Part shown: piece after piece, positions 1,140 through 63,547 of the stretch
Position numbering within the stretch: the stretch's first letter is position 1
Layout of the letters: the number at the start of each line of letters is the position of its first letter
Notes under the pieces: model-generated
What the model was told of the DNA's origin: nothing
Databases searched by the model: none
Seen by the model: only the letters and a program-made list of their open reading frames with translations
Origin: an uncultured Candidatus Saccharibacteria bacterium
Lineage (GTDB): Bacteria; Patescibacteriota; Minisyncoccia; Phycocordibacterales; G965230995
Length of the DNA: 64,000 nt
NCBI GenBank assembly: GCA_965230995.1
Contig: OZ246398.1
Coordinates: 400,213 to 464,212, forward strand
Direction of reading: 5' to 3'
Program-made: the position numbers and the translations under genes

Positions 1140-1358
1140 AAAAAGATTATATCAATAAAATAGTATTCTTGCCCCTTATGTTAATTGCGGTGACGATGTC
1201 CGGAACTTTGAACCGGTATTCGCCTTAAAGGCCTTATCTTATGGCCGTATTGATAAAATTATACGCCGTTTACGGTTATTTTACAAGGAAAATCCAGCCT
1301 CTTTTGAAGTTCCAGCATTCGCTGTAAAGGTTTATTAATCGGTATTCGCTTAATTTAG

Positions 1359-20766: not shown

Positions 20767-21572
20767 TTTGTTGCGGTTTGTTGCGGAATGTTGCCGTTAA
20801 GTGTATTTATAAACTGGTTGCACACTTCGGCGATTGCCTCACTCTCGGTCATTTTTGATTGTTTTGACAGGATGTTTAATGCTTCATCTATCACGCCCTT
20901 TTGCGGATTCGTGACATTGAAACTTACAAGGGCAATGGTTTCTCTTTTGGTATTAATATCTTTGACTGCTTTTTCGACCTTTACGCCTTTTGCTTTCGCA
21001 AATGCAGTCACGGCTTTTATAAATTCATCGGCTGATGCTTCAGGGTCTTTGTCTACGATGAAATTCAAAACGACAGTATTTTCTCGCTCGGCTTTTTTGA
21101 GCTCAATCATTTTCTTTTCTATTTCATCTTTCACTAAGTCGAGAGCATCTTTGACATTGATATCTTCCTCGCCAAGATTCTGAGCAATGTCTTTGATTGA
21201 ATATCCGTTTTGGGTTAATTCGTAGGCGAGCTTGCCGAGTTTTAATTGTTGGTTTGATCCGTGAATGTTGTCGGTTAATCCATAAAGTTTGGCTTCGTCC
21301 TCATTCTTGAAATTGTGGATATTAGCTTCGATCTCGGTTTCGCCGAGTTCGCCAAGGACTTTCCAAGTATGGTAACCGCCAACGATCACATATCCGTCTT
21401 TAACTTTCATGTTCGGCCAGACGCCCACTTGTATCGGTTTGGTTTGTCCATACTTAGTTAAAGCTTTTTTCAGCGAAGTAAATTGGCGAGCGTTCATTTC
21501 GTTTGGATTCCACCAGTTCGGAACGCACTCTTTTATTTTCACTATTTTGATTTCTGTTTTTTCTTTTTTCAT
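20763..21572 (-). CDS. ParB-like nuclease (ParB N-terminal domain) protein
   Basis: ParB/Srx-like segment ...YVIVGGYHTWKVL... ParB-NTD is commonly paired with phage DNA MTases. The start overlaps the MTase stop. Confidence 0.55.
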   Translation of the reverse strand: MKKEKTEIKIVKIKECVPNWWNPNEMNARQFTSLKKALTKYGQTKPIQVGVWPNMKVKDGYVIVGGYHTWKVLGELGETEIEANIHNFKNEDEAKLYGLTDNIHGSNQQLKLGKLAYELTQNGYSIKDIAQNLGEEDINVKDALDLVKDEIEKKMIELKKAERENTVVLNFIVDKDPEASADEFIKAVTAFAKAKGVKVEKAVKDINTKRETIALVSFNVTNPQKGVIDEALNILSKQSKMTESEAIAEVCNQFINTLNGNIPQQTATK

Positions 21573-24808: not shown

Positions 24809-25159
24809 TTACTCGGCTTTCACCGAGCGAATCCATCCTCCCAGCATTCTTCCGATTTCATCGATTACGCTTTCAAGTATCATATATTTTTTAGCGTCTA
24901 TCGTTTTTGTGTCCTTCATTAGTCGAATGAAGACTCTTAGCATGTTGAGCTTGAGGCTGGCCTTTTCAAGTGTTGGCAATTTTTCTTTTTTCTGCTCTCC
25001 ACTTGCTTTCATTATACTTTCCAAAACATCTAAAATCGCACACTCGGACTTTTCAAAAACCGTGAAGCGATCTTGTTTGGGAACGAGTTTGCGATACTCA
25101 TTGAATGTTTTGTATAAGTCATAGCTTTTCTTAAAAATAGGAATATCAAAGTCATTCAT
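24809..25159 (-). CDS. avd: Avd, the accessory variability determinant (four-helix-bundle family)
   Basis: 116 aa and basic. The C-terminus ...IDEIGRMLGGWIRSVK resembles the Avd/S23-IVS family ending. Lies between the TR and the RT. Confidence 0.7.
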   Translation of the reverse strand: MNDFDIPIFKKSYDLYKTFNEYRKLVPKQDRFTVFEKSECAILDVLESIMKASGEQKKEKLPTLEKASLKLNMLRVFIRLMKDTKTIDAKKYMILESVIDEIGRMLGGWIRSVKAE

Positions 25160-25171
25160 AGTTTTAATTTT

Positions 25172-26221
25172 ATGAGAGTTTATACTAATTTATTCGAGAA
25201 AATAATTTCAATCCCTAATATTTTTACTTCGTGGGAAGAATTCAAAAGCGACAAACGCAAGAAGGCGGATGTCCAAGAATTTGAATTTAACCTTGAGCCG
25301 AATTTGTTTGCTCTTTACCGTGATTTAAAGGGCAAAAGATATGTTCATTCTCCATACTCTGGATTTTATATTTATGATCCAAAGGTCAGGCATGTCCATA
25401 AGGCTTCAGTGCGTGATCGTATTTTGCATCATGCTATTTTTCGCATTCTTAATCCGCTTTACGACAAGACTTTTATAGCGAATTCGTTCTCATGCCGAAT
25501 AAACAAAGGAACGCATAAAGGAGTATTGGCTGTTGAGCGAATGATTCGAAGCGAAAGTCGAAATTTTACCAGACCGTGTTTTGCCTTAAAGTGTGATGTC
25601 AGAAAATTTTTTGACAGCATTGACCATCGCACCTTACTAAGCATTCTCGGTAAAAAAATAACAGATCAAGACACTATGTGGCTTTTGAACAGGGTTGTGG
25701 AAAGTTACTCGGCCAGTCAGACTAATTTATTCGATAGGCAGGGTTTACCCATAGGCAATTTAACCTCGCAACTTTTCGCGAATGTTTACATGAATGAATT
25801 TGATCAATTCGTGAAGCATAAACTTAAGGTTGTCAATTATGCTCGATACACCGACGACTTCGTTATTGTCTCGACCGACAGAGCGTATCTTGAAAATATC
25901 CTAGATCCAATCAAGGAGTTTTTGGATAAAAATTTACAATTGTCGCTCCATCCCAATAAGGTATCGATCCGGGCGTGTCATCAGGGCGTTGACTTCTTGG
26001 GATATGTCGCTTTCCCGTACCACCGTCTTGTAAGAGCAAGAACAAAACGGAGAATATTCCGCAAGATGAAAGAACGCATCGCCATGTTCAGAAGCGGAAC
26101 AATCAGCGAGGATGCTCTTTCGCAATCTTTGCGATCATATTTGGGTGTTCTTTCCCATGCCAACGCCCACCAACTTTCAGAAGGCCTTAAGAATCAGTAT
26201 TGGTTTTGGTTGCACGATTAA
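25172..26221 (+). CDS. DGR reverse transcriptase
   Basis: RT domain with catalytic YTDD and the DGR-specific motif GLPIGNLTSQLFANVY ([I/L]GxxxSQ). Confidence 0.9.
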   Translation: MRVYTNLFEKIISIPNIFTSWEEFKSDKRKKADVQEFEFNLEPNLFALYRDLKGKRYVHSPYSGFYIYDPKVRHVHKASVRDRILHHAIFRILNPLYDKTFIANSFSCRINKGTHKGVLAVERMIRSESRNFTRPCFALKCDVRKFFDSIDHRTLLSILGKKITDQDTMWLLNRVVESYSASQTNLFDRQGLPIGNLTSQLFANVYMNEFDQFVKHKLKVVNYARYTDDFVIVSTDRAYLENILDPIKEFLDKNLQLSLHPNKVSIRACHQGVDFLGYVAFPYHRLVRARTKRRIFRKMKERIAMFRSGTISEDALSQSLRSYLGVLSHANAHQLSEGLKNQYWFWLHD

Positions 26222-26552: not shown

Positions 26553-27623
26553 ATGTCTATGGACAACATTTTTAACAAATTTGATCATCGAATAAAAAAT
26601 CTTGACCCACACATTGTGGCTATTTTGGCTGAGATTGACGGAATTCGAGGCGAATTTAAATCTGGCTTGCGAATGACTCCCCAGGCAATTACTAATCTCA
26701 AAAAATCTACACTGATCACTTCAGCCGGTGCTTCTACTCGTATTGAGGGTGCAAAGCTTACCGACGAAGAGGTGGAGAAAGTCATGAGAGGTCTTGCTAT
26801 CTCAAAGTTTGCTGATCGTGATTCTCAAGAGGTTCAGGGATATTTGGAAACACTCCAAAATGTTTTTGATAGTTATCAGGATTTACCACTTAGGGAAAGT
26901 TTGATCACCTCACTCCACAATCAGCTTCTTAAGTATTCGCACAAAGACGACACTCATCGTGGCAGTTACAAAAAGAAAGAGAATACTGTCGGAGTACTTG
27001 GACCGGATGGAAACATTGCAAAGATAATGTTTGAAACCACGCCGGCTTTTCTAACCGGCAAAGAGATGCAGGAACTTGTCGAATGGACAAATGATGCTTT
27101 TGAGAAGAATCGTTTCCACAATCTTTTAATTATCGCAAACTTTGTTGTTGAATTTTTGAAGATCCACCCATTTGAAGATGGTAATGGTCGTCTTTCTCGT
27201 GTTCTCACGAATCTTTTACTTTTGCGATCAGGTTATCAGTTCGTTCAGTATGTCTCACACGAGCAATTAGTTGAACATAGAAAAGACGAATATTATATTG
27301 CACTCCGTAAATCTCAAGAAACATTCAAAACCGACCACGATACAATTTCGCCATGGCTTAATTTCTTTTTATCAGTTATTAGAGAACAAGCCGTGAAGGC
27401 ACTATCGTATCTGGAAGAAGAAAAGATTGAGGACACTCTCTCTCCCAAGCAATATGAGGTATGGAAATATCTCACAGGTGTTGAACAGGCAGGACCGGGT
27501 GAGATTGTGAAGGAAACGAACATAGCACTCGGAACGGTACGCCAAGCACTCGACCGGTTGGTTGAACTTGGTAAGGTCAAGCGTGTCGGGCGTGGCCGAG
27601 GTACGAGGTATGTAAAAATATAA
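26553..27623 (+). CDS. Fic/Doc family protein (AMPylation-type) with a C-terminal winged-helix domain
   Basis: Canonical Fic motif HPFEDGNGRLSRVL. Confidence 0.85.
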   Translation: MSMDNIFNKFDHRIKNLDPHIVAILAEIDGIRGEFKSGLRMTPQAITNLKKSTLITSAGASTRIEGAKLTDEEVEKVMRGLAISKFADRDSQEVQGYLETLQNVFDSYQDLPLRESLITSLHNQLLKYSHKDDTHRGSYKKKENTVGVLGPDGNIAKIMFETTPAFLTGKEMQELVEWTNDAFEKNRFHNLLIIANFVVEFLKIHPFEDGNGRLSRVLTNLLLLRSGYQFVQYVSHEQLVEHRKDEYYIALRKSQETFKTDHDTISPWLNFFLSVIREQAVKALSYLEEEKIEDTLSPKQYEVWKYLTGVEQAGPGEIVKETNIALGTVRQALDRLVELGKVKRVGRGRGTRYVKI

Positions 27624-37459: not shown

Positions 37460-39166
37460 ATGAGTACAAATTATTTAATTTACGGCCGTGTTTCTACCTC
37501 TCGTCAGGCCGAACGAGAATTAAGTATTCCGGCACAGGTCAAAGCGTGCCAAAAGTATGGAATGGATCATCATTGGAATTTACTTCCCGATGGCATCTAC
37601 GAGGAAAAAGGCGAATCCGCAAGAACGACTGATCGTCCACAGCTCCAGAAAATGCTTCATCGAGCAAAGACGGACAGCAAGGTTGATGTCATCTTAGTCC
37701 ACAAGCTTGATCGTATGTGTCGCAATGTGGCTGATTACGCCGCCATTAAGATGATGCTTAAAAAGCACGATGCCAAACTCGTTTCAGTGGTTGAACAATT
37801 CGATGAGTCCTTTTCCGGTGAGCTGGTTGAGAACATCATGGCATCGATTGCTCAATGGACTTCACAAAACATCAGCTGGGAGGTCAGGAAGGGTCTTAAA
37901 GAGGCCGTAGAGCGTGGCAGGTTCCCGGGGTATGCACCAATTGGGTATACGAACGATAAAAAGACCAAGTCTCTTATTATTGATAATATTCGAGCCCCTT
38001 ATATAAAACTGGCTTTTGAACTTTACGCCACCGGCAAGTATTCATACGATTCTTTGTCTGCCGAACTTAATAAGCGGGGTCTAAAAAGTAAATCCGGCAA
38101 ACATGTTAATCGCAAATCAATTGAGCATTTTCTTTGCAATCCAATTTACTATGGTTTGATAAAAACTCGATCAGCTACTTGTCAGGCAAACTTTCCGCCT
38201 CTAATTTCTAAAAAACTTTTTGATGATGTTCAGGAGGTAGTCCAACAGCACAATCATTATGCAGACCGTACTCGCAAGCACTCGTATCCTATGGCAGGGT
38301 TTATGAGATGTGCTGTGTGTGGGTCTACGCTCTGCGGACAGATGCAAAAGGGTCATCTTTATTATTCTTGTACTCACTGGCAGGACAAAAACTGTACTGA
38401 ACGCAAATACATGCGATGGGAGGTTGTTGAGGAACAGGTTGCAAACCATTTATCACGGGTTCATTTACCTGATAAGTTTAAGAAGGTACTCGATTCATAT
38501 TTCCAATATTTTGCAAAAGAACGACTCGAACAGGAGGATAAAGAACGCAAGAGTCTCAAGCGTGAGCTTATAAGAGTTCAACAGCAGATTCGCAATATCG
38601 TTGTGGATCGTTCTCAGCGTATCATTGACGCCGATGTCTTTATAAAGATTCAGGACGAGCTTCTTAAGGAGAAGGAAATGTATCAGGATCGCTTGGGTGT
38701 ACTTGAGGGCAAATCTGATAAATTCGTGCAGAAATTTAATGAGTTACTGGACTTCACGGATCATGCCGACAAGGTGTTTAACACCAGCTCAATGCATCAA
38801 AAACGCACTCTGATGAAGCTTTGTTTTGAGGGGTTCACTGTCAGTAATCAAAAACTGACGCCGATATGGACGCCAGTCTTTGATGTTCTTATGGATTTGC
38901 AAGTTTCCAAACTCGAACCACCGAAACCGTCAAAGGGCTTGAAAACCCTTGCAGTTTCTAAGGTTCAAAGTTGGAAATCTGGCGGAAGAGGAGGGATTCG
39001 AACCCTCGATGGGCTTTCGCCCATACCAGTTTTCGAAACTGGGACATTCAGCCTCTCTGCCACTCTTCCGTATGTAGATAGCCTATCACTTTTTGCATTT
39101 TTTACAAAAAATGTTATATTATTCCAGTCGGTTTGGTGTCTACCAAATCCACGGCCTTATCGTTAA
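37460..39166 (+). CDS. Large serine recombinase (phage integrase)
   Basis: Catalytic motif IYGRVSTSRQ, a recombinase domain, and the zinc ribbon CAVCGSTLCGQ...YYSCTHW...C. 568 aa. Confidence 0.85.
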   Translation: MSTNYLIYGRVSTSRQAERELSIPAQVKACQKYGMDHHWNLLPDGIYEEKGESARTTDRPQLQKMLHRAKTDSKVDVILVHKLDRMCRNVADYAAIKMMLKKHDAKLVSVVEQFDESFSGELVENIMASIAQWTSQNISWEVRKGLKEAVERGRFPGYAPIGYTNDKKTKSLIIDNIRAPYIKLAFELYATGKYSYDSLSAELNKRGLKSKSGKHVNRKSIEHFLCNPIYYGLIKTRSATCQANFPPLISKKLFDDVQEVVQQHNHYADRTRKHSYPMAGFMRCAVCGSTLCGQMQKGHLYYSCTHWQDKNCTERKYMRWEVVEEQVANHLSRVHLPDKFKKVLDSYFQYFAKERLEQEDKERKSLKRELIRVQQQIRNIVVDRSQRIIDADVFIKIQDELLKEKEMYQDRLGVLEGKSDKFVQKFNELLDFTDHADKVFNTSSMHQKRTLMKLCFEGFTVSNQKLTPIWTPVFDVLMDLQVSKLEPPKPSKGLKTLAVSKVQSWKSGGRGGIRTLDGLSPIPVFETGTFSLSATLPYVDSLSLFAFFTKNVILFQSVWCLPNPRPYR

Positions 39167-39233: not shown

Positions 39234-39308
39234 GGCCTTATCGTCTAACGGTCAGGACACGGCCTTTTCAAGGCTGTAATCGGGGTTCGATTCCCCGTAA
39301 GGTCACCA
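39234..39308 (+). tRNA. tRNA-Glu (anticodon UUC), with CCA encoded
   Basis: Cloverleaf: acceptor ggcctta/taaggtc, anticodon stem cggcc/ggctg with loop uuUUCaa, and T-arm cggggTTCGAttccccg. Confidence 0.8.
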
Positions 39309-39312
39309 GTAC

Positions 39313-39343
39313 AAAAAAGAGCACACGTTAGTGTGCCTTTTTT
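39313..39343 (+). terminator. Rho-independent terminator after tRNA-Glu
   Basis: aaaaaagaGCACACgttaGTGTGCctttttt. Confidence 0.7.
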
Positions 39344-39346
39344 GTT

Positions 39347-39482
39347 TGGTGACCTTAAGCAAGCAAATAATTTTGCTTGCGTCGGGGAATCGAAAAGGTT
39401 TCCTTTATTTATGAAAAGCTTTGCTTTGAATAAATAGGAAACCTATACTGTCCATGTAATGGAAGATTCCCCGTAAGGTCAC
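39347..39482. repeat. tRNA-Glu-associated composite. It comprises an inverted copy of the tRNA 3' half with a 24-nt hairpin insertion (39347-39394), the shared 20-mer atactgtccatgtaatggaa (39445-39464), and an 18-bp direct copy of the tRNA 3' end (39465-39482).
   Basis: Direct sequence comparison with tRNA 39289-39308. The same architecture follows tRNA-Lys. Confidence 0.75.
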
Positions 39483-39552
39483 TAAAAGGAGATGTATTCT
39501 TGGTGTATTTTAGGGTGTTTTAACAAGTTCTCAGAGCTGATATAATTAAATT

Positions 39553-53109: not shown

Positions 53110-55587
53110 ATGGCTAAAAAAGAAGACAAAAAACCAGAAAATGACGGACTTCCAGCAGAGATAAACCCTCGTATTTCTGTGGTTTCTAGAAATGTTGTCG
53201 ATGAAATGAAAGAATCTTTCATTGACTATGCGATGTCTGTTATTACAGAAAGAGCCTTGCCAGACGTCAGGGACGGTCTCAAACCAGTACACCGAAGAAT
53301 ACTATATTCTATGTACGAAAATGGGCATACTTTTAATGCAAAATTTGTAAAAAGTGCGCGTATTGTTGGAGACGTGCTTGGAAAATATCACCCACACGGT
53401 GATGCGGCTGTTTACGAATCAATGGTTAAATTGGCACAAGATTTTGCTACCAGATATCCTTTGATACTTGGACAAGGAAACTTTGGTTCAATCGACGGCG
53501 ACAATGCCGCTGCTATGAGATACACCGAGGCAAAAATGTCTAAAATGGCAAATGAGCTTCTTCGTGATATCGACAAAGAAACAGTTCCTTTTCATCCAAA
53601 CTACGACGCCACAAGAAAAGAGCCGGGCGTTTTGCCTACTGCAGTTCCGAATTTGCTTCTCAATGGTACTTTGGGAATTGCTGTCGGTATGGCAACAAAC
53701 ATTCCTCCTCACAATTTGGGGGAATTATGCAATGCCATAATTCATATGATAGATAATCCGAATGCTACAGCCGAGGATTTGCTTTCTTTCGTAAAAGGTC
53801 CAGATTTTCCAACTGGATGTATTATATTCAACCAAAAAGACATACAGCACGCCTATGCAACAGGTAGGGGCGGAATAGTCACTCGTGGTGTTGCAGAAAT
53901 AGTTGAATCAAAAGCCGGAAGTTACCAAATCATCATTACATCAATACCATATAGAGTTAACAAAGCAGATTTGATTGTAAAAATTGCTGATTTGGTTAGA
54001 GAAAAGAAAATTGACGGTATAAAAGACGTCAGAGACGAATCAACAAAAGACATCAGAGTGGTGATTGAACTCAAGGGCAACAGCCATCCTCAAAAAGTCC
54101 TTAACTTTTTATACAAGCATACACAACTAGAAGAAACCTTCCACTTGAATATGGTGGCGCTTGTTGATGGTGTACCTCAGACTCTTTCACTGAAGGGAAT
54201 CCTTGAGCATTTTATTGATCACAGACTTGTTGTTATTAAAAAACGAACTGAATACGATCTCGCAAGGGCTCTCGAAAGAGAACATATTCTCCTCGGTTTG
54301 AAAAAAGCTCTCGATCATATTGATGAAATTATCAAAACCATCAAGGCCTCAAAAGACACACAATCTGCTCACGAGAACTTGATGAAAAAATTCAAATTCT
54401 CTGACAGGCAGGCAACTGCAATTTTGGAAATGAAACTCCAAAGATTGGCAGGTCTAGAAAGAAAGAAAATCGAAGACGAATTGCTTGCTGTACAGGAATT
54501 AATCGAAAAATTAAAGAAAATTCTTTCTTCAAAGAAAGAGATGACAAACATCATCAAAACAGAATCGACAGAAATCATCGAAAAATTTGCTGATGAAAGA
54601 AAAACAAGAATCATAAAACAAGGTGCAAAAGTCCTCTCAGTCGAAGACCTGGTTCCAGACGAAGAACAGACACTTGTGTTGACTTCTGGCGGGTATGTAA
54701 AAAGAACCAGCCCAGATGAATTCAAAAGACAAAAACGAGGCGGGGTAGGTGTCGTTGATTTGGATACCAAAGAGGAAGACTTTGTCACGACGTTCCTAAC
54801 TGCAAGCACTCACAGCGATGTCTTGTTCTTTACCGACAAAGGTAAAGCATACCAAGTAAAAATGTATGATTTGCCAGAAGGAAAAAGAGCCACAAAAGGA
54901 AAATCTATTATCAACTTTATCGGAATGGCAGAAGATGAAAAAGTCACTTCAGTTTTGGCGATGCCAAAGGAAATAAAAGAGATGGATTTTTCTGTTTTGA
55001 TGGTAACAAAACACGGGGTTACTAAAAAAGTCGATGCAAAGAGCTTCCATGATGTAAGACGAAACGGCATAATCTCAATTAAACTCGCAGATGGAGATGA
55101 ACTCATTTCTGTATCATTTGTGGGTGGAAAAGACACCATAGTGGTTGTAACCAAAAACGGTCAATCAATTAGGTTTTCATCTGATGATGTTAGAGAAATG
55201 GGTAGGGGTGCAGCAGGTGTAAGAGCAATTAAACTCGGCAAGGGTGACGAAGTAGTTGCTTCAGGTAGAATTCTTGAAAATGCAAAAGTCGACTTGCTCG
55301 TACTTATGGAAAACGGATACGGAAAAAAGACACCAATTGATGAATACAAAGTCCAGAATAGAGGTGGTTCAGGTATAAAGACAGCAAAGGTAACAACAAA
55401 AACAGGAAAATTGATATCCGCACACGTTGTAACTGCAGAAGAAGCCGAAATTGTCACAATTTCAAAGAAGAGCCAGGTGATTAGAACGGGAATAGACGAA
55501 ATACCCACTCTCGGTAGACAGACTCAAGGGGTTAGAATAATGAAACTCCGCGATGGTGATGGTATAGCTTCTCTCATTTGTTTGTAG
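53110..55587 (+). CDS. gyrA: DNA gyrase subunit A
   Basis: Active-site region [12 protein letters not shown], a QRDR-like HPHGD, and C-terminal beta-pinwheel repeats. Confidence 0.95.
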
Positions 55588-55592
55588 AAATA

Positions 55593-55623
55593 AAAAGCCC
55601 CGCGCTTCGCGCGGGGCTTTTTA
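55593..55623 (+). terminator. Rho-independent terminator after gyrA
   Basis: aaaaaGCCCCGCGCttcGCGCGGGGCttttt. Confidence 0.85.
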
Positions 55624-55674
55624 GATCTCCACAGTTATTTTTCTATTTTCTTTTGTAAGTGTTATAATTTAACA

Positions 55675-56202
55675 ATGTTTACAGATCCAGTATCTAATCT
55701 AGATTCTTTTGGTATTGAGCCGGGTATGAAGATTGCCGATATGGGAGCCGGCTCGGGTTTTTATTCAATAGAAGCAAGCAAACGTGTTGGTGATACGGGC
55801 AGGGTATATGCAATCGAAGTCCAAAAAGAAATTCTTGCAAAAATAAAAAATGATGCCGAGAAACTTGGGATTACAAATATAGAATATATCTGGGGAGATA
55901 TAGAAGCACCCAACGGAACAAAAATAGGAAACAATGTTGTCGACGCTATTTTTCTTTCAAATACTCTATTTCAGGTTGAAGACAAAAAAGGTGTTGTGCA
56001 TGAAGCACGTAGAATACTTAAACCTCGTGGTAAAATTTTGATCTTAGATTGGGCAGATTCTTTTGGTGGAATGGGACCATCTCAAAATATGCTCGTCCCC
56101 AAAGAAGATGTTCGCAAAATGTTCGAGGAATCCGGTTTTGTTTTTGTAAAAGAATTTGATCCAGGGGATCATCATTATGCATTAGTAATGAAAAAACAAT
56201 GA
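55675..56202 (+). CDS. Class I SAM-dependent methyltransferase
   Basis: Motif I IADMGAGSGFYS. Confidence 0.75.
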   Translation: MFTDPVSNLDSFGIEPGMKIADMGAGSGFYSIEASKRVGDTGRVYAIEVQKEILAKIKNDAEKLGITNIEYIWGDIEAPNGTKIGNNVVDAIFLSNTLFQVEDKKGVVHEARRILKPRGKILILDWADSFGGMGPSQNMLVPKEDVRKMFEESGFVFVKEFDPGDHHYALVMKKQ

Positions 56203-57488
56203 CAAAATTTCAACTTATTCTAACAATGGTTTTCGGTGCCTTTATTATTATTGGCGTCATCTTCTTTTCACTCGGAAGATCCGGATCAAACCAAGCTATA
56301 TCAAAAGTCTTGGTATGGGGCTACCTTCCAGAAAATCAATTTCAAGAAATTCTAAAACAGACGGGTGTAAGCGATGATAAAAACTTTTCTGTTACATACG
56401 AACAGATAGACAGAGATAATTTTGATGATAATTTTGTTAACGCCCTAGCCGATGGCTATGGTCCTGATGTTTTGTATATTGGTCAAGATCAAATATTAAA
56501 ACAAAAAAACAGGCTTGCGCTGATACCTTACGAATATTATCCGTTAAGAAACTTCCAGAATACTTTTACAGAGGGAACAGAAATTATGCTTGCTGATGGT
56601 GGAATCAGGGCGATACCTATCACAGTAGACCCCTTGGTTTTGTATTGGAATAGAGATACTTTTGCTGAAGCTGGTTTGGTTAACCCACCAAAAAATTGGC
56701 CAGAGTTAACATATGAAATGATTTTTCCGTTCACAAAAAAAGACGGTCCCGTGACATTGCTCCAAAGCGCTATTCCTTTGGGTACGTGGAGTAATCTAAA
56801 TCACGCAAAAGGAATTCTATCTGCTTTGATTATGCAATCCGGTGGCAATGTTACTTCTAAAATGGCATCGGGTGTTGTATCTGCTCTTGGAAATAGAATT
56901 GCAAATGGTGCTAGACCAGCTGAATCCGCCCTCAATTTCTTTGTTGATTTTTCAAATCCACAAACTAATTTCTATACTTGGAACGGGGCATTGTCTAATT
57001 CAATAGATTATTTTGCTTCTGGTAGATCAGCAATGTATATTGGGCTCGCTTCTGATCTTGAAAAAATTAAACAAAGAAATCCTAATCTTAATTTTGATGT
57101 GACCGAATTACCTCAGTCTCCAGAGAGAAAAAGAGCCGTGACCTATGGTGAGATTATGTCGCTTGCAATTCCATCAAGTACATCAAATTTTGCCAGCGCA
57201 CTTAATTTTATAAATGCTGTTTCGACAAAAGAAGGCACTTTAATTCATTCGAGAGTTCTCGGTTCTGCACCATCTAGAAAAGATGCGTTACTTGAACCAG
57301 ACCCAGCAAATGCTTTTGAATCAGTTTTCTTTAATTCTGCAAAATATGCTCTTTCCTGGCTTGACCCAGACAAAACAGAAACCGATAATATTTTTTCTGA
57401 TATGATAAAGAGCGTCACAAGCGGACAGAAAAGAATTAGCGACTCTGTATCGACCGCAAATCAAGAGCTTGTAAACATTCTCAAATAA
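56199..57488 (+). CDS. Membrane-anchored extracellular solute-binding-protein-like protein
   Basis: N-terminal TM segment followed by an SBP-like periplasmic domain. Operonic with the pilin-like genes. Confidence 0.5.
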   Translation: MTKFQLILTMVFGAFIIIGVIFFSLGRSGSNQAISKVLVWGYLPENQFQEILKQTGVSDDKNFSVTYEQIDRDNFDDNFVNALADGYGPDVLYIGQDQILKQKNRLALIPYEYYPLRNFQNTFTEGTEIMLADGGIRAIPITVDPLVLYWNRDTFAEAGLVNPPKNWPELTYEMIFPFTKKDGPVTLLQSAIPLGTWSNLNHAKGILSALIMQSGGNVTSKMASGVVSALGNRIANGARPAESALNFFVDFSNPQTNFYTWNGALSNSIDYFASGRSAMYIGLASDLEKIKQRNPNLNFDVTELPQSPERKRAVTYGEIMSLAIPSSTSNFASALNFINAVSTKEGTLIHSRVLGSAPSRKDALLEPDPANAFESVFFNSAKYALSWLDPDKTETDNIFSDMIKSVTSGQKRISDSVSTANQELVNILK

Positions 57489-57489
57489 A

Positions 57490-57882
57490 ATGAAAAAACT
57501 TTTTGCACATATAATAATCCTGTTTATAGTAATCATTCCAGTTGCTTTTCCAATATTTGCACTAGCACAGGGCAATGCACCAAGCCTAATAGTTTGTGAT
57601 GGTGTTACAGAACCCTGCACATTTAAACATGTCATAGAATTAGCGCAGGCGGTTATGAATTTTCTATTATATATTTCTACATTTATAGCTGCGGGAATGT
57701 TTATCTATTCAGGTTTTCTATATGTGACAGCAGGTGATGATTCTGGAAAAGTCACCACAGCAAAGGGAATCTTTAAAAGTGTTGCACTCGGTTATATCAT
57801 TATGTTATCTGCGTGGGTAATTGTTTATACGCTCGTAAATGCGCTATCAGAAAACCCAGAATACCTAAAATATTTTAAATAA
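57490..57882 (+). CDS. TrbC/VirB2-like pilin family paralog 1
   Basis: A signal peptide plus two hydrophobic helices flanking a charged loop. Confidence 0.5.
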   Translation: MKKLFAHIIILFIVIIPVAFPIFALAQGNAPSLIVCDGVTEPCTFKHVIELAQAVMNFLLYISTFIAAGMFIYSGFLYVTAGDDSGKVTTAKGIFKSVALGYIIMLSAWVIVYTLVNALSENPEYLKYFK

Positions 57883-57886
57883 TAAT

Positions 57887-58369
57887 ATGAAAAAAAATCT
57901 AAGATTTATTGCGATAGTCGGGTTAATGTCATTTCTATTTATATCAAATGTTATTACGATACCTGCTCTGGCACAGACTGAGCCTGCAAAGGGTTCAGTG
58001 ATGAATGATGGTACCGGTTCACCCGAAAAAGGATCTGTTATGAATTCTCCTTCTACAGGTCAAACAACGGGGGATACTTCTGGTGGATTAAAGATAAAAA
58101 ATCCGCTTGGTGACAAGGTAAATACTTTACCTGATCTTTTGATTTTGATTATAGACAAAATTGTTCTACCAATTGGCGGGATTATTGTTGCCTTTATGAT
58201 TATTTATACTGGCTTTAAATTCGTAATGGCACAGGGTGATCCTGGGGAACTGACTAAAGCAAAGCAAAGCCTTATGAATACATTAATTGGTGCCGCTATT
58301 ATATTGGGAGCATTGTCTATTTCAATAATAATAAAATCAATAGTAGATGATATAATCAAGGTTATATGA
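57887..58369 (+). CDS. TrbC/VirB2-like pilin family paralog 2
   Basis: Same architecture. Core reads ...IVAFMIIYTGFKFVMAQGDPGELTKAKQSLMNTLIGAAIILGA... Confidence 0.5.
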   Translation: MKKNLRFIAIVGLMSFLFISNVITIPALAQTEPAKGSVMNDGTGSPEKGSVMNSPSTGQTTGDTSGGLKIKNPLGDKVNTLPDLLILIIDKIVLPIGGIIVAFMIIYTGFKFVMAQGDPGELTKAKQSLMNTLIGAAIILGALSISIIIKSIVDDIIKVI

Positions 58370-58749
58370 AAAAGTATATTTTATCATTTTTACTCCTTGC
58401 ACCGTTCATTGCGAGTGCAAAAATATCAAATTTCAAAGAACTTCTCGATTTATTTTTTGAGTATGCAACCCAAATAGTTTTTCTAATATCAGTTTTGATA
58501 CTGCTTGCGTTTATGTGGGGTGTTGCCGATTTTATCAGAAAAACTGGTAGCGGTGATGACTTGGCAGAAGCAAAAAAAAGACTTTTGTGGGGTGTGATTG
58601 CAGTTTTTGTTGCGTTTTCTTTATGGGGAATATTATCATTTCTTTCAAATGATATATTTGGACCAACACAAGTCGATGTTGCTCCGCAAATATCAGAAGA
58701 TAAAATATTTCAATTTTTTCCTCGCAATAGCACACAAAATGGCCAATAA
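58366..58749 (+). CDS. TrbC/VirB2-like pilin family paralog 3
   Basis: Core reads ...LAFMWGVADFIRKTGSGDDLAEAKKRLLWGVIAVFVAFSLWGIL... Confidence 0.5.
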   Translation: MKKYILSFLLLAPFIASAKISNFKELLDLFFEYATQIVFLISVLILLAFMWGVADFIRKTGSGDDLAEAKKRLLWGVIAVFVAFSLWGILSFLSNDIFGPTQVDVAPQISEDKIFQFFPRNSTQNGQ

Positions 58750-58752
58750 TTT

Positions 58753-59577
58753 ATGAAAAAAATATTTCTCATACTTTCAATAATATTTGTTCCAATGCTA
58801 GCATCTGCCGATGGTGGTTTGGGTTCTCTGCTCAAAGCAATTACAGATATAGCAGAAATGCTCATTCCTATAGTCGCATCGCTTGCTCTACTATATTTTT
58901 TTTGGGGTGTTGCAGAATATGTTCGTGGTGTTGGCGCTTCGGGAAAAGAAGAGGGAAGATCAAAAATGTTTTGGGGCGCTATTGGATTGTTTGTAATGAT
59001 GTCTATTTGGGGACTTGTTAATTTCATAAGCTCAGATTTTTTGGGTATCAAACCAACTTCTTCGGGTGGTTCATATAGCAGTAGTTACAATAATCCAAGA
59101 TTAAATCAAAATACGCCAGTTCCTCCTTGTTATGACACAAGAACAGGAAAGACCGTTGTTAGAAACCCAAATGGTAGTGTGACATATACAATAGGGAACA
59201 AAGACCTTGATCCTTGCAAAACAGACGCAACCAATCAGATAATCAATCTAACAGCCTTTACAATAAATAAGACATGGAGTGCTACAAAATGGACGGCTTC
59301 TAAAATAAAAAATGGCGCAGTCGGTACATTCGAATGGGTTTTTGGTAGCAATAATAAAACTCAAGATACACAAACACAAAACCCTCCAGCAGAAAACACG
59401 AATCCAGCGGATGACGGTACAGATAACGGTATGCTAGAAAGTTACAGAATCGACGGTACAGATGATGTGGATGATTCAAATGTTGATGTTGCCACTGATG
59501 AACCACTAGAAGACGAAGGGGATACAACATATCCAACAGATGGACCAGACGAGAATTGGATGGGCCCCAACGATTAA
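58753..59577 (+). CDS. TrbC/VirB2-like pilin paralog 4 with an extended, acidic C-terminal tail
   Basis: Core ...LALLYFFWGVAEYVRGVGASGKEEGRSKMFWGAIGLFVMMSIWGLVNFI... plus a 170-aa Asn/Thr/Asp-rich tail. Confidence 0.5.
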   Translation: MKKIFLILSIIFVPMLASADGGLGSLLKAITDIAEMLIPIVASLALLYFFWGVAEYVRGVGASGKEEGRSKMFWGAIGLFVMMSIWGLVNFISSDFLGIKPTSSGGSYSSSYNNPRLNQNTPVPPCYDTRTGKTVVRNPNGSVTYTIGNKDLDPCKTDATNQIINLTAFTINKTWSATKWTASKIKNGAVGTFEWVFGSNNKTQDTQTQNPPAENTNPADDGTDNGMLESYRIDGTDDVDDSNVDVATDEPLEDEGDTTYPTDGPDENWMGPND

Positions 59578-59663
59578 TCCACATTGTATCGTTGCTTGCT
59601 TGTTTAAATCGTATTATTATTAGCTAAAGCGTTATATTCGCTAATTTATTAATAAAAGTTTAT

Positions 59664-60023
59664 ATGAAAAAATATTTTCTTGCAGTCTCACTAATTGTTC
59701 TTCCTGTAATCGTATTGGCGGCTGATTCTAATGGTTATTTATCAGATTTGAAATCAATTGTAAGTTCTATTGGAAGGATTATTGGACTTCTCATCCCAAT
59801 CGTATTTGCTCTTGCTCTCCTATATTTCTTCTGGGGATTGGCAAAATACATCCTTGCTTCAGGTGAAGGAAAAGAAGAAGGAAGAAATACTATGATTTGG
59901 GGTGTTGTTGCATTGTTCGTAATGGCATCAATTTGGGGGATAGTTAGTTTTATACAAAAGGCTTTTGGTGTTACCAATAATGCGGATGCTACTGTTCCTA
60001 CTGTAGTTATACCAAAAAAATAA
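59664..60023 (+). CDS. TrbC/VirB2-like pilin paralog 5
   Basis: Core LIPIVFALALLYFFWGLAKYILASGEGKEEGRNTMIWGVVALFVMASIWGIV is identical to paralog 6. Confidence 0.55.
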   Translation: MKKYFLAVSLIVLPVIVLAADSNGYLSDLKSIVSSIGRIIGLLIPIVFALALLYFFWGLAKYILASGEGKEEGRNTMIWGVVALFVMASIWGIVSFIQKAFGVTNNADATVPTVVIPKK

Positions 60024-60079
60024 CAATAAAATTAATTATTTAATTACAAATTATTCGCAAATTTATTAATAAAATTTAT

Positions 60080-60430
60080 ATGAAAAAAAATATTTTTTTA
60101 GCATTGCTAATGGTTCTGCCGTACTTTGTTTCAGCACAGGAACAACTGAAAAATGTAGAGGGGATAGTAGGATCAATAGGAGATATTGTTAATTTACTCA
60201 TCCCAATAGTGTTTGCCCTAGCTCTCCTATATTTCTTCTGGGGATTGGCAAAATACATCCTTGCTTCAGGTGAAGGAAAAGAAGAAGGAAGAAATACTAT
60301 GATTTGGGGTGTTGTTGCATTGTTCGTAATGGCATCAATTTGGGGGATAGTTAGATTTATTCAAAGCGCTTTCAATATTGATAATGAAAATCCAGCAACT
60401 CAAAATGCGCCGGGAATAAAAAAACAATAG
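60080..60430 (+). CDS. TrbC/VirB2-like pilin paralog 6
   Basis: Shares about 160 bp of near-identical DNA with paralog 5, including the upstream promoter/RBS. Confidence 0.55.
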   Translation: MKKNIFLALLMVLPYFVSAQEQLKNVEGIVGSIGDIVNLLIPIVFALALLYFFWGLAKYILASGEGKEEGRNTMIWGVVALFVMASIWGIVRFIQSAFNIDNENPATQNAPGIKKQ

Positions 60431-60773: not shown

Positions 60774-61388
60774 TTATTGGCTGTTGTTTATAGGTTCAAC
60801 GATTTCGATCTTGATCTCTGCCCCGCTGGGCGAGAGACCCTTCACCCAGAGTAGCGTGAAGGTGCCTTTCGGTTTGTGTTTACCTTCCGTCTTTTCCTCG
60901 TCAACACCGAAGTTCTCGTACCATACGACTTCCTCGGAGACATGCTCCGAGATGAAATCGTTGACACGAATCAGGGCCCTACCCTTGTTAGAGTAAACCT
61001 TGAAGGGGCGTCCGTCGATGTCGAACGGCTCAGAGATCTCTCCTTGGGCTACCGTGACAGTTCTCGATGCGATAACTCTCACGTTCTCGGTGTCAACCTT
61101 ATTGGCAACCTTCGCCTGTACAGCGGTGTTGGTGGTACGAGGGCGCATGTCGTTCATCGCGCCGTTCGTGAACACTCCACTGCATGTTGAGATAAGGCAG
61201 ACGAGCGACAGCAACGCCAGGTACCACAGAATGCTGTGCGATGCCTTCGTGGTCCCCTTCGCAGAGGTAGCCGTTCCCGGAGTGGCTGATCCGCCAGTAC
61301 CCGAGCCCTTTTTCTTCTTGAAGAAGATCACAATCGCCGCTACCACAAACACTGCCAGAACCCCGATCATAACCTGTCTGACTTCCAT
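60774..61388 (-). CDS. GC-rich membrane protein. One TM helix, a Gly/Thr-rich linker, then a second TM helix.
   Basis: ORF with biased codon usage. Sits upstream of the SPFH gene on the same strand. Confidence 0.45.
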   Translation of the reverse strand: MEVRQVMIGVLAVFVVAAIVIFFKKKKGSGTGGSATPGTATSAKGTTKASHSILWYLALLSLVCLISTCSGVFTNGAMNDMRPRTTNTAVQAKVANKVDTENVRVIASRTVTVAQGEISEPFDIDGRPFKVYSNKGRALIRVNDFISEHVSEEVVWYENFGVDEEKTEGKHKPKGTFTLLWVKGLSPSGAEIKIEIVEPINNSQ

Positions 61389-61500
61389 AGAACTCCTCCT
61401 GTTTCCATATTATTATATCATACATACAGTTTATATGTCAAGTACGAAAAAGCGCCGGGGTTTAGCCGGCGCCGTGAATGGCAAGTGTCTGTCGGGGGTC

Positions 61501-62496
61501 CTAATCCCCGTCAGGAACTATCTTTCCACCCGGTGCGTACGTAATGTGAGTCGCATCGGAGAGCCCGATCATCGCTGCTGCAACGGTCTCCGGGTTCTTG
61601 AGCACTGCGTGGATGCGCTCCACCTGGCTCGCCTCAGCCTGTGCGATGCCTTGTGTCTCCTCAACCTTGGCCTCAGCCAAACCCTTGGCCTCCTTGACCC
61701 TGATCGCAGCAAGCTTATCCTCCTTTTCGATCTCTGGTCCTTGACGAACTCTCGCTGCATCTGCTTGTTGATGTGAAGCAGCAAGGTCGGTGAAGCTCTG
61801 ACGCAGAGCCTTCTCTGATGCCGAGTCGTCCCTCTTGGTAATTGTGGCATCAGTTACCTTTAGGGCGAAGCTAGAGTTGTTGAGAGACTGTTGAAGGCCA
61901 ACCTTTCCAGCTTCACTTACTGTTTCGACCTGGGCATCAGTCATTGACTTGACCAATATTTCCAGGTGGCTGGTAACACTTTCCTTCACCAAGAAGATGA
62001 TCTTTGCTTCAGCTTCAGGTTGGGGAAGAATATTGCCATCTGTTGTGAGCAAGTGCTGTTGGATGAAATCAATACAGGTTGGGTTTTCTGTATCGATTGA
62101 CACCATGACACGAAAGTCCAGGTCCTTCTGTCTGCGTGTATGGCTAGCTGTCAAACTGCCATCAGGGTTTAGGATGTTTATTTCAACATCCTTCTTCTGA
62201 CCCACTAAGGTGAAGACCAGTGGCAATGTTCCCTTGACCTTGAAACAAGGATTCAACCCGTACATGATACGAATTGGATTTGCCCAGTGCATCTTCGCCA
62301 CGTGACGGTGGTACATTCCCGGTAACACTATGCCCATAAAGGCTGTGTTTACGAGGGGGTTGTATACACCACGAGGTACATTGTTTACGAAGACAACACT
62401 GAGTGTCCCGCCGTTTACTTCATGATACGACGAGACAATCAGAAGGACGACAAACGCGATGGCAATGAGGATTCCGAGCGTGGTAGTGGTGAACAT
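61501..62496 (-). CDS. SPFH/band-7 (stomatin/flotillin-like) domain protein with a C-terminal Ala/Glu-rich coiled coil
   Basis: N-terminal TM helix, an SPFH-like core, and an AEAKVEETQGIAQAEASQVE helical tail. Confidence 0.65.
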   Translation of the reverse strand: MFTTTTLGILIAIAFVVLLIVSSYHEVNGGTLSVVFVNNVPRGVYNPLVNTAFMGIVLPGMYHRHVAKMHWANPIRIMYGLNPCFKVKGTLPLVFTLVGQKKDVEINILNPDGSLTASHTRRQKDLDFRVMVSIDTENPTCIDFIQQHLLTTDGNILPQPEAEAKIIFLVKESVTSHLEILVKSMTDAQVETVSEAGKVGLQQSLNNSSFALKVTDATITKRDDSASEKALRQSFTDLAASHQQADAARVRQGPEIEKEDKLAAIRVKEAKGLAEAKVEETQGIAQAEASQVERIHAVLKNPETVAAAMIGLSDATHITYAPGGKIVPDGD

Positions 62497-62712: not shown

Positions 62713-62785
62713 GCGCTCATAGCTCAGCTGGTAGAGCAGTCGCCTCTTAAGCGAACGGTCGTAGGTTCGATTCCTACTGGGCGCA
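62713..62785 (+). tRNA. tRNA-Lys (anticodon CUU)
   Basis: D-arm UAGCUCAGCUGGUAGAGCA, anticodon loop cuCUUaa, T-arm guaggTTCGAUUccuac, acceptor gcgctca/tgggcgc. Confidence 0.8.
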
Positions 62786-62799
62786 CATCGCAATAATAG

Positions 62800-62834
62800 A
62801 AAAACACCTCTGATTTTAAAGGTGTTTTTCTTTT
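62800..62834 (+). terminator. Rho-independent terminator after tRNA-Lys
   Basis: aaaaaCACCtctgattttaaaGGTGtttttctttt. Confidence 0.75.
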
Positions 62835-62928
62835 GCGATGTGCGAGCCGGACCGTAGCGGAGCGGAGGGAGGCGGGGTCGCGACTTTCTGCCGAGAACAC
62901 GAGGCAGAAAAGTAGTGACCACAATGTT

Positions 62929-63062
62929 TGTGCGCCCAAGCAAGTCCGGGGGACTTGCGTGTAGGAATCGAAAGGCTTTTGAGCTGATTTTAGAGTTCGA
63001 GGAACGAGAACGAATAAAATCACCAAAAGGCATACTGTCCATGTAATGGAAGATTCCTACTG
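62929..63062. repeat. tRNA-Lys-associated composite. It comprises an inverted copy of the tRNA 3' half with a 21-nt hairpin insertion (62929-62972), the shared 20-mer atactgtccatgtaatggaa (63032-63051), and an 11-bp direct copy of the tRNA 3' end (63052-63062).
   Basis: Direct comparison with tRNA-Lys 62766-62787. Parallels the tRNA-Glu locus. Confidence 0.75.
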
Positions 63063-63127
63063 AATGAAAGTGACTTGTCCTTCGTTCACAAAAGACGAAA
63101 GTTGTGACCACAAGCAAAAAATAAATT

Positions 63128-63547
63128 TTGTATTTGCATTTTGATATTATTGGGAATAGAATTAATATGTATCGAGACAAACCGACTCGACAGTTTGTAC
63201 ACCTAGAAGTGGAGGAGGTCATGACTACTAGTGCTAGGGTTGACATGAGTAGGTTTGAGAGTGTACTCAAGCCACAATTGGGCCCGCTGTGGGGCAGGGC
63301 CTTGACTATCTTCGAAGGTTACGGTCCGGCCCTGAGTTGGTGTGTGACCAAGTCTCTTGATCTTGCCGTTGATCGGGGAAAAGTGGAGGAGGTGCTAGGT
63401 ATTCTGGAAAGACACTACCGGGACCATCTCTCGTTTCAACACCCTGACATTCGTGGCGCGATCGAAGGGGCCTCTGGTGACCTCACCAACACTATGTTCA
63501 GGCAGATCTTTGAGGTGGTGCTTAAGAAGGCACCTTGTGCGGGGTGA
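63128..63547 (+). CDS. Hypothetical protein in a moderately GC-rich region
   Basis: ORF of 139 aa. No motif recognised. Confidence 0.3.
   Translation: MYLHFDIIGNRINMYRDKPTRQFVHLEVEEVMTTSARVDMSRFESVLKPQLGPLWGRALTIFEGYGPALSWCVTKSLDLAVDRGKVEEVLGILERHYRDHLSFQHPDIRGAIEGASGDLTNTMFRQIFEVVLKKAPCAG

Follow-up and report, generated by a model that had tools for sequence, protein, structure and literature searches.

Structured, tRNA-matched repeats behind tRNA genes of Patescibacteria: candidate insertion cassettes without open reading frames

A stretch of 64,000 nucleotides (nt) from an uncultured Candidatus Saccharibacteria bacterium (contig OZ246398.1, positions 400,213 to 464,212; this whole stretch is called the window below) carries, behind its transfer RNA (tRNA) genes for lysine and glutamate, two copies of a small element in which inverted and direct copies of the adjacent tRNA 3' half alternate with a conserved scaffold of hairpins. 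The same pattern is found at 22 tRNA species in 85 independent sequences, which excludes chance, and this recurrence supports the proposal of an earlier note on this DNA that there exists a family of small tRNA-targeting elements; the members are devoid of open reading frames (ORFs), and each is matched to its own tRNA. The family is apparently widespread in Patescibacteria and undescribed. The favoured reading, held here with middling confidence, is that these units are ORF-less insertion cassettes, mobilised in trans, which would recombine with the part of their cognate tRNA gene that runs from the T-loop to the 3' end. All the evidence comes from comparative sequence analysis of metagenome-derived assemblies, in which loci are designated by the letter L and a number.

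The elements behind tRNA-Lys and tRNA-Glu

The tRNA-Lys(CTT) gene lies at 62713-62786 on the forward strand (ARAGORN; 68.3 bits with the Rfam tRNA model) and is followed by the trailer ATCGCAA and a terminator, t1, which together occupy 62787-62832. This terminator consists of an A-tract, a GC stem and a T-tract and looks bidirectional; its inverted repeat (I1, 62795-62809 with 62820-62834) belongs to an arrangement shared by all family members. The repeats that the earlier note had listed around this gene were all recovered in place, by reading of the sequence and with a repeat finder. The end of the gene with its trailer, CGCACATCGCAA (62782-62793), is 100% complementary to TTGCGATGTGCG (62833-62844), the first part of an inverted copy (b') that covers the trailer and the end of the acceptor strand. 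The rest of the inverted acceptor strand, GTGCGCCCAA (62930-62939; inverted repeat I4), is the complement of nt 66-73 of the tRNA, and the repeat finder likewise pairs TGGGCGCACA (62778-62787) with TGTGCGCCCA (62929-62938) at 100% complementarity. Next comes a scaffold hairpin, P1, formed by GCAAGTCC-GGG-GGACTTGC (62940-62958; inverted repeat I5), which with a GT linker extends to 62960, separates the two inverted tRNA-Lys blocks and stands at the exact junction of acceptor stem and T-stem. The earlier note had seen in it a hairpin inserted into an inverted tRNA half; the hairpin is indeed there, but it is a conserved, if optional, part of the element's scaffold.

Beyond P1, GTAGGAATCGAA (62961-62972, nt 65 down to 54) is complementary to the 3' strand of the T-stem together with the T-loop; it matches TTCGATTCCTAC (62766-62777) with 100% complementarity and provides the 5' strand of a stem named S. 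A hairpin of about 59 nt, P2 (62973-63031), delineated by the covariance model described below, opens the conserved module. It is followed by the 20-mer ATACTGTCCATGTAATGGAA (63032-63051), made up of the junction ATACTG, the hairpin P3 (TCCAT GTA ATGGA) and a single A. The element closes with GATTCCTACTG (63052-63062; direct repeat D4), a direct copy of tRNA-Lys nt 57-67 (62769-62779) that provides the 3' strand of stem S. All these parts lie in the sense of the tRNA, and the covariance model matches 62959-63065 with 82.6 bits (E-value 3e-19). The 20-mer occurs exactly twice in the window, here and at 39445-39464, while the shuffle expectation is 0.00 matches even when 3 mismatches are allowed; its identity at tRNA-Lys and tRNA-Glu, pointed out in the earlier note, is thus confirmed and far above chance.

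The tRNA-Glu copy (39234-39482, forward strand; 87.3 bits with the covariance model) is built on the same plan. It comprises the tRNA-Glu(TTC) gene (39234-39308, forward strand, ARAGORN), t1 (39309-39346), the inverted acceptor (39346-39358), P1 (39359-39382), the inverted T-arm (39383-39394), P2 (39395-39444), the 20-mer and a full direct copy of 18 nt (39465-39482) that repeats 39289-39306. Its predicted fold (39346-39483; -63.1 kcal/mol, z = -11.7) shows only the helices S, P1, P2 and P3. Ordinary host genes flank it on the right, and the element is self-contained.

The inverted copy behind tRNA-Lys is interrupted at 62845-62929 by a sequence of the form AGCCGGA..hairpin..GGGGTCGCGA-hairpin-TAGTGACC ACAATGTTT, on the forward strand. 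The earlier note had taken this GC-rich interior for a part of the element; sequence and motif family assign it instead to a secondary insertion of a second family of repeated modules, referred to as type 2. The pentamer GTGCG brackets it on both sides (62840-62844 and 62930-62934), and once 62845-62929 is removed the inverted copy becomes a continuous complement of the tRNA 3' end and of the trailer TCGCAA. As this complement extends into the trailer, it copies the gene rather than the mature, CCA-ended tRNA. A primer-binding site or pairing with mature tRNA was rejected on the same grounds, the complement running into the trailer and not following CCA in the Lys copy. A copy of the tRNA 5' strand was rejected as well: opposite T71 the 5' strand carries G but the Glu copy A, and the latter continues as the complement of CCA and trailer.

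In the insertion reading, the direct copy at 63052-63062 would be what is left of the original 3' end of tRNA-Lys after displacement and truncation. It is followed on the forward strand by a fragment (63063-63115) similar to the 3' portion of type-2 modules (..hairpin..AAAGTTGTGACCACAAGC), with 94% identity between 62909-62924 and 63098-63113 (direct repeat D2), and that is probably the leftover of an older element. With its secondary insertion, its direct copy of only 11 nt and this remnant, the Lys copy looks older, while the Glu copy, with its full direct copy, looks young.

Recurrence and conserved structure

The genome-wide pattern search that the earlier note had called for was extended beyond the window and found the 20-mer at 29 genome loci, all from Patescibacteria (the records are labelled Paceibacterota, Saccharibacteria, Taylorbacteria, Nomurabacteria or Minisyncoccia bins), while the 20-mer followed by GA has exact matches in 54 metagenome contigs. 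A covariance model, R1, built from 34 copies and run over 85 sequences (621 kilobases (kb) in total), detected 123 modules; in the window it found just the two known copies. For 77 of the 106 modules with upstream sequence, a tRNA gene on the same strand ends at most 450 nt upstream, at a median distance of 71 nt; the rest of the 123 are either cut by a contig end (17) or are array members or "orphans" (29). Twenty-two anticodons are represented. Compared with the local tRNA, the inverted copy shows two exact blocks with medians of 13 and 9 nt, adding up to at least 18 nt in 62 of the 77 cases. The direct copy is variable, its longest exact match being 4-19 nt (43 nt in one case) with a median of 10 nt. 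Full-text literature searches returned no description of this architecture, and neither module type matches any family of Rfam 15: at the gathering threshold the window and 17 loci gave tRNA and LOOT only, and at a relaxed E-value both window elements and an orphan flank gave only terminator-like noise.

The units measure about 170-350 base pairs (bp) and are devoid of ORFs. Read 5' to 3' in the sense of the tRNA, all copies follow one plan, with the tRNA, the trailer with t1 (an A-tract before the GC stem and a T-tract after it), the inverted trailer and acceptor, P1, the inverted T-arm, the module and the direct copy. Most members, including elements at different tRNAs, have a P1 of the type AAGY...RCTT followed by YGT, although P1 is optional and is missing in L003 and L027. 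The inverted T-arm ends with TCGAA, with TTGAA opposite TTCAA loops, or with GAGAA in the Ala type. It is followed by GAA-R, P2 (about 50 nt), ATACTG, P3 (TCCAT-GTA-ATGGA), a single A and the direct copy, which starts from G57. The T-arm complement pairs with the start of the direct copy to form stem S, so that the module is a three-way junction of S, P2 and P3.

The covariance check suggested in the earlier note gave a clear answer, as both P2 and P3 covary strongly. In the model alignment of 106 distinct sequences, standard pairs fill 94.4% of the P2 and P3 cells versus 66.1% after shuffling, and all 16 of the 16 P2/P3 pairs show compensatory changes on both sides; the covariation score is 0.63, versus at most 0.156 with slid partners. 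Pairing reaches 91-94% in the P2 helices and 99.4% in P3, whose variants GACCAT/ATGGTC, GGTCAT/ATGACC, CTTCT/AGAAG and CTCGT/ACGAG all retain the GTA loop. P1 itself shows a compensatory change from C-G to A-T between the syntenic loci L007 and L029. Such conservation of structure argues against a site that works solely as protein-bound duplex DNA.

In the tRNA 3' flanks inspected, the same frame (terminator, inverted acceptor, P1, inverted T-arm, module and direct copy from nt 56/57) also surrounds the different, GC-richer type-2 module, of the form ..RCGGAG..hairpin..GAGCC-GGGTCG-YGA-hairpin-TGACC. This arrangement was found at Asp, Val, Cys, Pro, Trp and Leu(CAA) tRNAs, and the motif family has members in L007, L010, L011, L014, L015, L018, L161, L165, L176, L180, L188, L193, L198 and L203 (at 1220-1340 in L007, 1380-1470 on the reverse strand in L011 and 5790-5900 in L014) and also in L028. 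In the window, 62845-62929 is a clear type-2 member which lies inside the inverted acceptor with a 5-bp duplication, and modules of this type can insert outside the tRNA-matched frame as well.

Several unusual forms of the units were also observed. Orphan units of the Asn type, devoid of the tRNA 5' part, are present at L006 2290-2355, L009 4894-4955, L024 2540-2590 and L012 1308-1340, and in L155, L153, L191 and L171. Their left flank begins with RGTTC.. and has no more of the tRNA than its last 5-6 nt. On the opposite strand, this flank is conserved in the manner of a small ORF (..FRT(F/L/A)NW..), the changes being synonymous; possibly it represents the terminus of a different element that had integrated into tRNA-Asn. 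In L006, a defence-type gene (SMEK/ABC-3C) adjoins the orphan unit. In L030 (5000-5290), L027 (4297-5800), L193 and L188/L205, three to four modules form arrays, either behind a single tRNA or spread over a cluster of tRNAs. Units made of P2, junction and P3 directly abut in L030, and in L027 three to four units come after tRNA-Gln, separated by small ORFs in a cassette-like manner; none of the cargo ORFs of the arrays matched Pfam. A variant module (..ATACTG CTTCT GTA AGAAG G..) is found at L005 1290-1570, and also in L199 (about 1950-2050) and L156. It follows a truncated tRNA-Glu 5' half that breaks off after U33, and a direct repeat of some 80 bp (with leader and tRNA 5' half) lies on either side, which looks like an insertion into the anticodon loop that duplicated the 5' instead of the 3' part.

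Proposed insertion and retargeting, and competing explanations

Insertion is suggested by several features of the flanks. A full direct copy followed by a terminator unlike t1 is present in the intact-looking copies of L011, L007, L028, L018, L012, L157, L154, L170, L191, L204 and L206. A displaced original 3' end would be expected to have this appearance, and on the simplest reading the original gene consisted of the tRNA and the second terminator. What the earlier note had called a target duplication exists as a direct copy, but is better read as the 3' end that the insertion pushed aside. Identical whole units are found in tandem in L199, L009 and L201, and partially in L022, as expected if insertion regenerates its target. 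At the tRNA-Asp of two syntenic genomes, L007 has a type-2 unit and L029 a type-1 unit followed by a type-2 remnant, while in L166 a new module stands before a partly deleted older one; newer units are nearest the tRNA, with older ones displaced outward and partly deleted. Within one metagenome, a near-identical Asn unit is located behind an intact tRNA-Asn (L154) and in a context without tRNA (L171). As to the presence/absence comparison proposed in the earlier note, different elements occupy the same tRNA in syntenic genomes, and no pair of empty and filled alleles was found.

Retargeting is suggested by the sharing of scaffolds. Units at different tRNAs have module cores (P2 to P3) in common, with identities of at least 85%, one cluster of 13 cores being distributed over Glu, Arg(GCG), Arg(TCT), Lys(CTT) and Leu(TAA). 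When such units are aligned, P1, a GGAATCGAA block, P2 and the 20-mer prove conserved, whereas the short stretches between them vary with the local tRNA, and the t1 terminators are unrelated between units sharing a core. Conversely, units at neighbouring tRNAs of one genome are quite different (L014), and units at the same tRNA of related genomes can differ (L014 versus L019). Such scaffold sharing, together with differing units at the same tRNA, fits turnover and movement better than vertical co-divergence. Capture of terminators between loci was considered and rejected: when t1 was compared with the native terminators that follow direct copies elsewhere, there was no cross-locus match.

These features are most simply accommodated by the following scheme. 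A unit would bring a copy of tRNA nt 57-76, the trailer with the bidirectional t1, the inverted trailer and nt 76-54, usually split by P1 at 65/66, and the module. Insertion at the T-loop would rebuild an intact tRNA on the left, such that tRNA-Lys (62713-62786) would consist of original nt 1-56 and of nt 57-76 supplied by the element, and the original 3' end would move to the right, there to decay or be truncated. The unit would move as a discrete entity, most simply a circle or a hairpin. Joined end to end, the free unit would form one long stem in which the tRNA 3' half pairs with its own complement, with t1 at the tip, P1 as a side branch and the three-way junction closing the base; the result would be a compact single-stranded substrate with a stem that reproduces the target duplex. 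An enzyme encoded elsewhere would recombine the unit with the T-loop region, the module acting as a cis-acting recognition structure in single-stranded form (DNA or RNA) and the inverted copy supplying target matching.

In the earlier note's proposal of independent, trans-mobilised insertions, the insertion part has several features in its favour; the one argument for mobilisation in trans is that no recombinase was found near the units. An all-against-all comparison of ORFs from the 29 loci revealed no shared neighbour protein. Pfam scans of 281 neighbouring ORFs (143 + 138) returned unrelated housekeeping genes. The 20-mer does not belong to any conserved gene, the case that the earlier note had named as refuting its reading. 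No recombinase or transposase family is enriched among these 281 ORFs, and neither an integrase nor a DEDD recombinase is among the 25 most frequent Pfam families listed for them (83 loci). The serine integrase of the window (37460-39166) is part of a prophage across tRNA-Ser, not of the element. Free-standing homing-endonuclease genes were observed beside element-bearing tRNAs at two loci, L005 (LAGLIDADG, 401-1165, reverse strand) and L185 (HNH and LAGLIDADG, at 8181-8651 and 9913-10638, forward strand); they are too rare to be a general mobiliser in cis.

A number of points weigh against the cassette reading. No excised form, candidate enzyme or empty/filled allele pair from near-identical strains was found, and look-ups of flanking proteins for presence or absence returned only contigs of the same population that break at the elements. 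The tandems of L009 and L199 reach the contig end, where a cycle in the assembly graph is possible, while that of L022 runs into unique DNA. The model does not account for the rewriting of the three tRNA-specific segments that a change of tRNA would require of a scaffold, and landing in a non-cognate tRNA would break that gene. The recurrent insertions of 1-2 nt in the proximal direct copy (GATATCCC, GATCACCC) look like constraint and not passive decay. The position of P1 at the boundary of acceptor and T-stem and of the modules at the T-loop is what a tRNA-shaped RNA would predict, whereas a DNA site has no obvious need of either. Finally, the tRNA-sense strand has 42 G-T/T-G versus 16 A-C/C-A pairs, a count from a model-fitted alignment of related sequences that makes the strand call an indication only; the summed minimum free energy also favours this strand (-985.6 versus -903.5 kcal/mol). 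This strand bias fits RNA and single-stranded DNA equally and cannot separate them.

It is in light of these points that the best of the alternatives, albeit an unlikely one, has to be weighed, namely that each unit is a gene for a small RNA of tRNA shape, transcribed in the tRNA sense and matured by tRNA-processing enzymes, which would function for the host or as the RNA of a selfish element. The inverted acceptor and the direct copy would then form the acceptor stem, P1 would replace the D and anticodon arms, the inverted and direct T-stem strands would pair, and the conserved or type-2 module would take the place of the T-loop. This layout has the exact topology of a tRNA, with P1 at the equivalent of the 7/49 junction and both module types at the T-loop, and the strong covariation, the wobble bias on the tRNA-sense strand, the very stable fold of the Glu copy and the structural constraint suggested by the recurrent small bulges all agree with it; the T-GTA-A loop of P3 is presumably also compatible with a T-loop-like pentaloop. 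tRNA-like RNAs (the tRNA-like domain of transfer-messenger RNA (tmRNA), YrlA and viral tRNA-like structures) have an acceptor stem that is stacked on a T-arm and closed by the two ends of the RNA; such a fold is predicted for the Glu copy, but about half of the copies have a direct copy of insufficient length to build an acceptor stem. Moreover, the complement of the upstream tRNA is near perfect and reaches even into the trailer, more than an acceptor stem would call for, the unit is enclosed by two terminators and has no conserved promoter, and neither an Rfam family nor an ARAGORN call corresponds to it. The patchy distribution, the tandems and the replacement at orthologous sites also fit a selfish element better than a housekeeping RNA. 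The explanations overlap: an RNA may well be the means by which a mobile element acts.

Another possibility, which appears rather improbable, is that the units derive from larger integrase-bearing elements (prophages or islands) that integrate into tRNA 3' ends, either as remnants of their attachment regions or as cis-mobilisable derivatives of these regions, the direct repeats being attL/attR cores and the module a protein-binding arm of attP. Direct repeats from the T-loop to the 3' end are the classical sign of tRNA-integrating elements with P4-type integrases, and the units display this signature; the small cargo ORFs in the arrays of L027 and L012, the orphan Asn-type left flanks that resemble the end of another element, the defence-type gene of L006 and the window prophage adjoining tRNA-Ser point in the same direction. 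Against this, the inverted T-arm directly precedes the module in all inspected copies, leaving no long cargo between the left part and the module, and no integrase is among the most frequent neighbour families. The hairpins keep their pairing while their sequence changes, whereas protein sites on duplex DNA would keep their sequence, and an attP arm has no reason to carry a tRNA-matched complement of core and trailer. Scans of viral contigs gave 0 matches to the exact 20-mer and at least 120 to a degenerate pattern; among the loci examined, L113 alone has a paired P3 together with the architecture and is thus the one true viral-contig match, and an origin from phages was rejected on this basis.

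Still less probable is a local origin, in which replication would switch template at the terminator palindrome and the T-arm, creating a tandem inversion duplication whose palindrome apex would then be entered by hairpin-seeking modules. The three copies are indeed in direct-inverted-direct order, the one expected of tandem inversion duplications, L009, L199 and L022 repeat the same trailer and terminator after the direct copy, and the type-2 module inserts at other positions too, such as 62845-62929. In most intact-looking copies, however, the terminator that follows the direct copy is unlike t1, P1 and the module travel jointly as a scaffold between tRNAs, and no palindrome without a module was seen. 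Chance resemblance or an assembly artefact is effectively excluded: although some contigs end within units, where assemblers struggle, there are zero shuffle matches, the 85 independent sequences come from many studies and assemblers, and covariation is strong.

If the units are insertion cassettes, a bolder and only tentative proposal can be made, namely that they represent the non-coding part of a nucleic-acid-guided, reprogrammable recombination system of Patescibacteria. The segments flanking P1 would act as guides or be re-templated in each cycle, the junction would bind the trans-acting enzyme, and each unit would carry its own repair patch (tRNA 3' half and terminator), which could allow one scaffold to colonise at least 22 tRNA genes harmlessly. 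Mobile cassettes of this kind would be a compact means of invading essential single-copy genes of minimal genomes without damage, and a natural case of one scaffold retargeted to many sequences, the property behind the usefulness of guide-based recombination. Were the products instead tRNA-shaped RNAs, they would form a new and abundant class of non-coding RNAs in a phylum whose RNA biology is almost unknown. For the reading of Patescibacteria tRNA loci, the elements would provide a concrete cause for partial tRNA copies, extra terminators and contig breaks in metagenome-assembled genomes. The covariance model and the 20-mer are a simple handle for finding them, and cultured, transformable Saccharibacteria make the question testable.

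Known systems and genomic setting

Among known systems, tRNA-integrating islands and prophages, their cis-mobilisable derivatives and tycheposon-type arrays also insert between T-loop and 3' end, bring a replacement 3' end that keeps the tRNA intact, leave a direct repeat of the 3' part of the tRNA and form tandem or nested arrays. The direct copies in the window, 11 nt long at tRNA-Lys and 18 nt at tRNA-Glu, and the intact tRNAs called upstream of them correspond to this. In contrast to such islands, the cassette is only about 170-350 bp long, has no integrase in or beside it, and carries a complement of target and trailer as well as covarying hairpins; furthermore, one cassette scaffold serves many tRNAs, whereas an integrase family normally has one or a few targets.

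A structured scaffold interleaved with target-covarying segments is likewise found in the bridge RNA or seekRNA of IS110/IS1111 elements, and the guide-hairpin-guide layout of the cassette (inverted acceptor, P1, inverted T-arm) recalls the internal guide loop of a bridge RNA. However, the loops of a bridge RNA engage both strands, 8-9 nt of the bottom one and 4-7 nt of the top one (PMC11208160), while the two segments flanking P1 in the cassette are both complementary to the tRNA-sense strand, over 23 contiguous bases (54-76). As both pair with one strand, the layout is not that of a bridge RNA. The cassette also differs from IS110/IS1111 in being devoid of a DEDD recombinase gene and in carrying a sense copy of the target too.

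The attC sites of integrons and the attP(+) hairpin of CTX phage resemble the cassette in kind, with a conserved structure, a variable sequence and an asymmetry between strands. In the CTX case, the stem of the attP(+) hairpin reproduces the host target duplex. Integron cassettes are also small, have no recombinase of their own, and include ORF-less forms and arrays. Nevertheless, integron core sites R''/R' (RYYYAAC/GTTRRRY) are absent from unit boundaries, no integron integrase was found nearby, and there is no attI platform, the cassettes being dispersed over many tRNA genes with a tRNA-specific stem.

Structured repeats such as REP, REPIN and BIME sequences, pneumococcal BOX, Neisseria Correia elements and miniature inverted-repeat transposable elements (MITEs) share with the cassette a small size, a lack of coding capacity, a high copy number, modularity and hairpins, and are, like it, often near terminators and presumed to be mobilised in trans. 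They do not copy a neighbouring gene, whereas the flanks of the cassette are inverted and direct copies of the adjacent tRNA 3' half, and the cassette is almost exclusively behind tRNA genes. A MITE has fixed terminal inverted repeats that a transposase recognises and a short target-site duplication of constant length; the inverted termini of the cassette are local tRNA copies that vary by locus, and its "duplication" measures 4-43 nt. IS200/IS605-derived palindromic elements and REPINs have subterminal hairpins, insert 3' of a short fixed motif without duplicating it and go with a Y1 transposase or RAYT gene in the genome; the cassette has hairpins near both ends (t1 and P3), but its insertion duplicates the 3' part of the tRNA.

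Group I introns of Patescibacteria tRNAs lie in the anticodon loop (35/36), measure several hundred nt and interrupt the gene (PMC13011429). They and the cassettes are structured, RNA-like, ORF-less insertions in the same genes of the same phylum, but the cassette leaves the tRNA intact, is too small and has too few helices for a catalytic core of P3-P9. A group I intron, to which this work and the LAGLIDADG gene of L005 had drawn attention, was thus rejected on size, helix count and intact tRNAs, and the group I model had no match in the window or the 17 loci. No Rfam ribozyme matched either. A hammerhead was in addition set aside because the strand order and lengths of the junction misfit the hammerhead layout. 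By analogy, the cassette would be of a known kind in its function, a tRNA-targeting insertion that restores its gene; no described counterpart was found for its small size, its target-matched copies interleaved with a scaffold, its interchangeable modules and its range of 22 tRNA species.

As to the setting in the window, the first 39.1 kb or so correspond to a prophage. It carries a capsid gene and a possible portal gene (SU10 match below cutoff), encodes a LexA-like repressor and a large serine integrase, and includes a diversity-generating retroelement. The retroelement (24809-26218) comprises an Avd-like gene (24809-25156, reverse strand) and a reverse transcriptase (25172-26218, forward strand) and is followed by a Fic-domain gene (26553-27620). 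Near it, within the prophage region, is a LOOT RNA (RF03000; 22954-23074, reverse strand, 76.5 bits), which was also matched at L113 (4313-4434, reverse strand, 56.3 bits). The serine integrase ORF (37460-39166, forward strand; Resolvase, Recombinase and zinc-ribbon domains) reads through the tRNA-Ser(CGA) gene (38980-39069, reverse strand), an overlap that makes it probable that the prophage entered at or within the 3' flank of this tRNA gene; the gene has no 20-mer module.

Housekeeping genes such as ftsZ and ftsA occupy 39.5-52 kb, followed at 53110-60430 by a cluster resembling type IV secretion pilins, with six T4SS_pilin ORFs (for instance 59664-60023 and 60080-60430). Past this cluster, the DNA has 46% G+C, with ORFs of unassigned role on both sides of tRNA-Lys (60774-62496 and 63212-63547), and may be another mobile region. 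Among the 57 ORFs searched against Pfam over positions 1-64000, there are a restriction-modification pair (an R.HinP1I-type endonuclease and a C-5 cytosine methyltransferase) and, at 21569-22585, a D12-class adenine methyltransferase. Elsewhere in the data set, a palindromic motif, AAGTTCGAACC, is found just past the second terminator in L154, L191, L168 and L012, about 15-25 nt ahead of a TATAAT-like box upstream of the next gene, and may be a promoter element of these bacteria.

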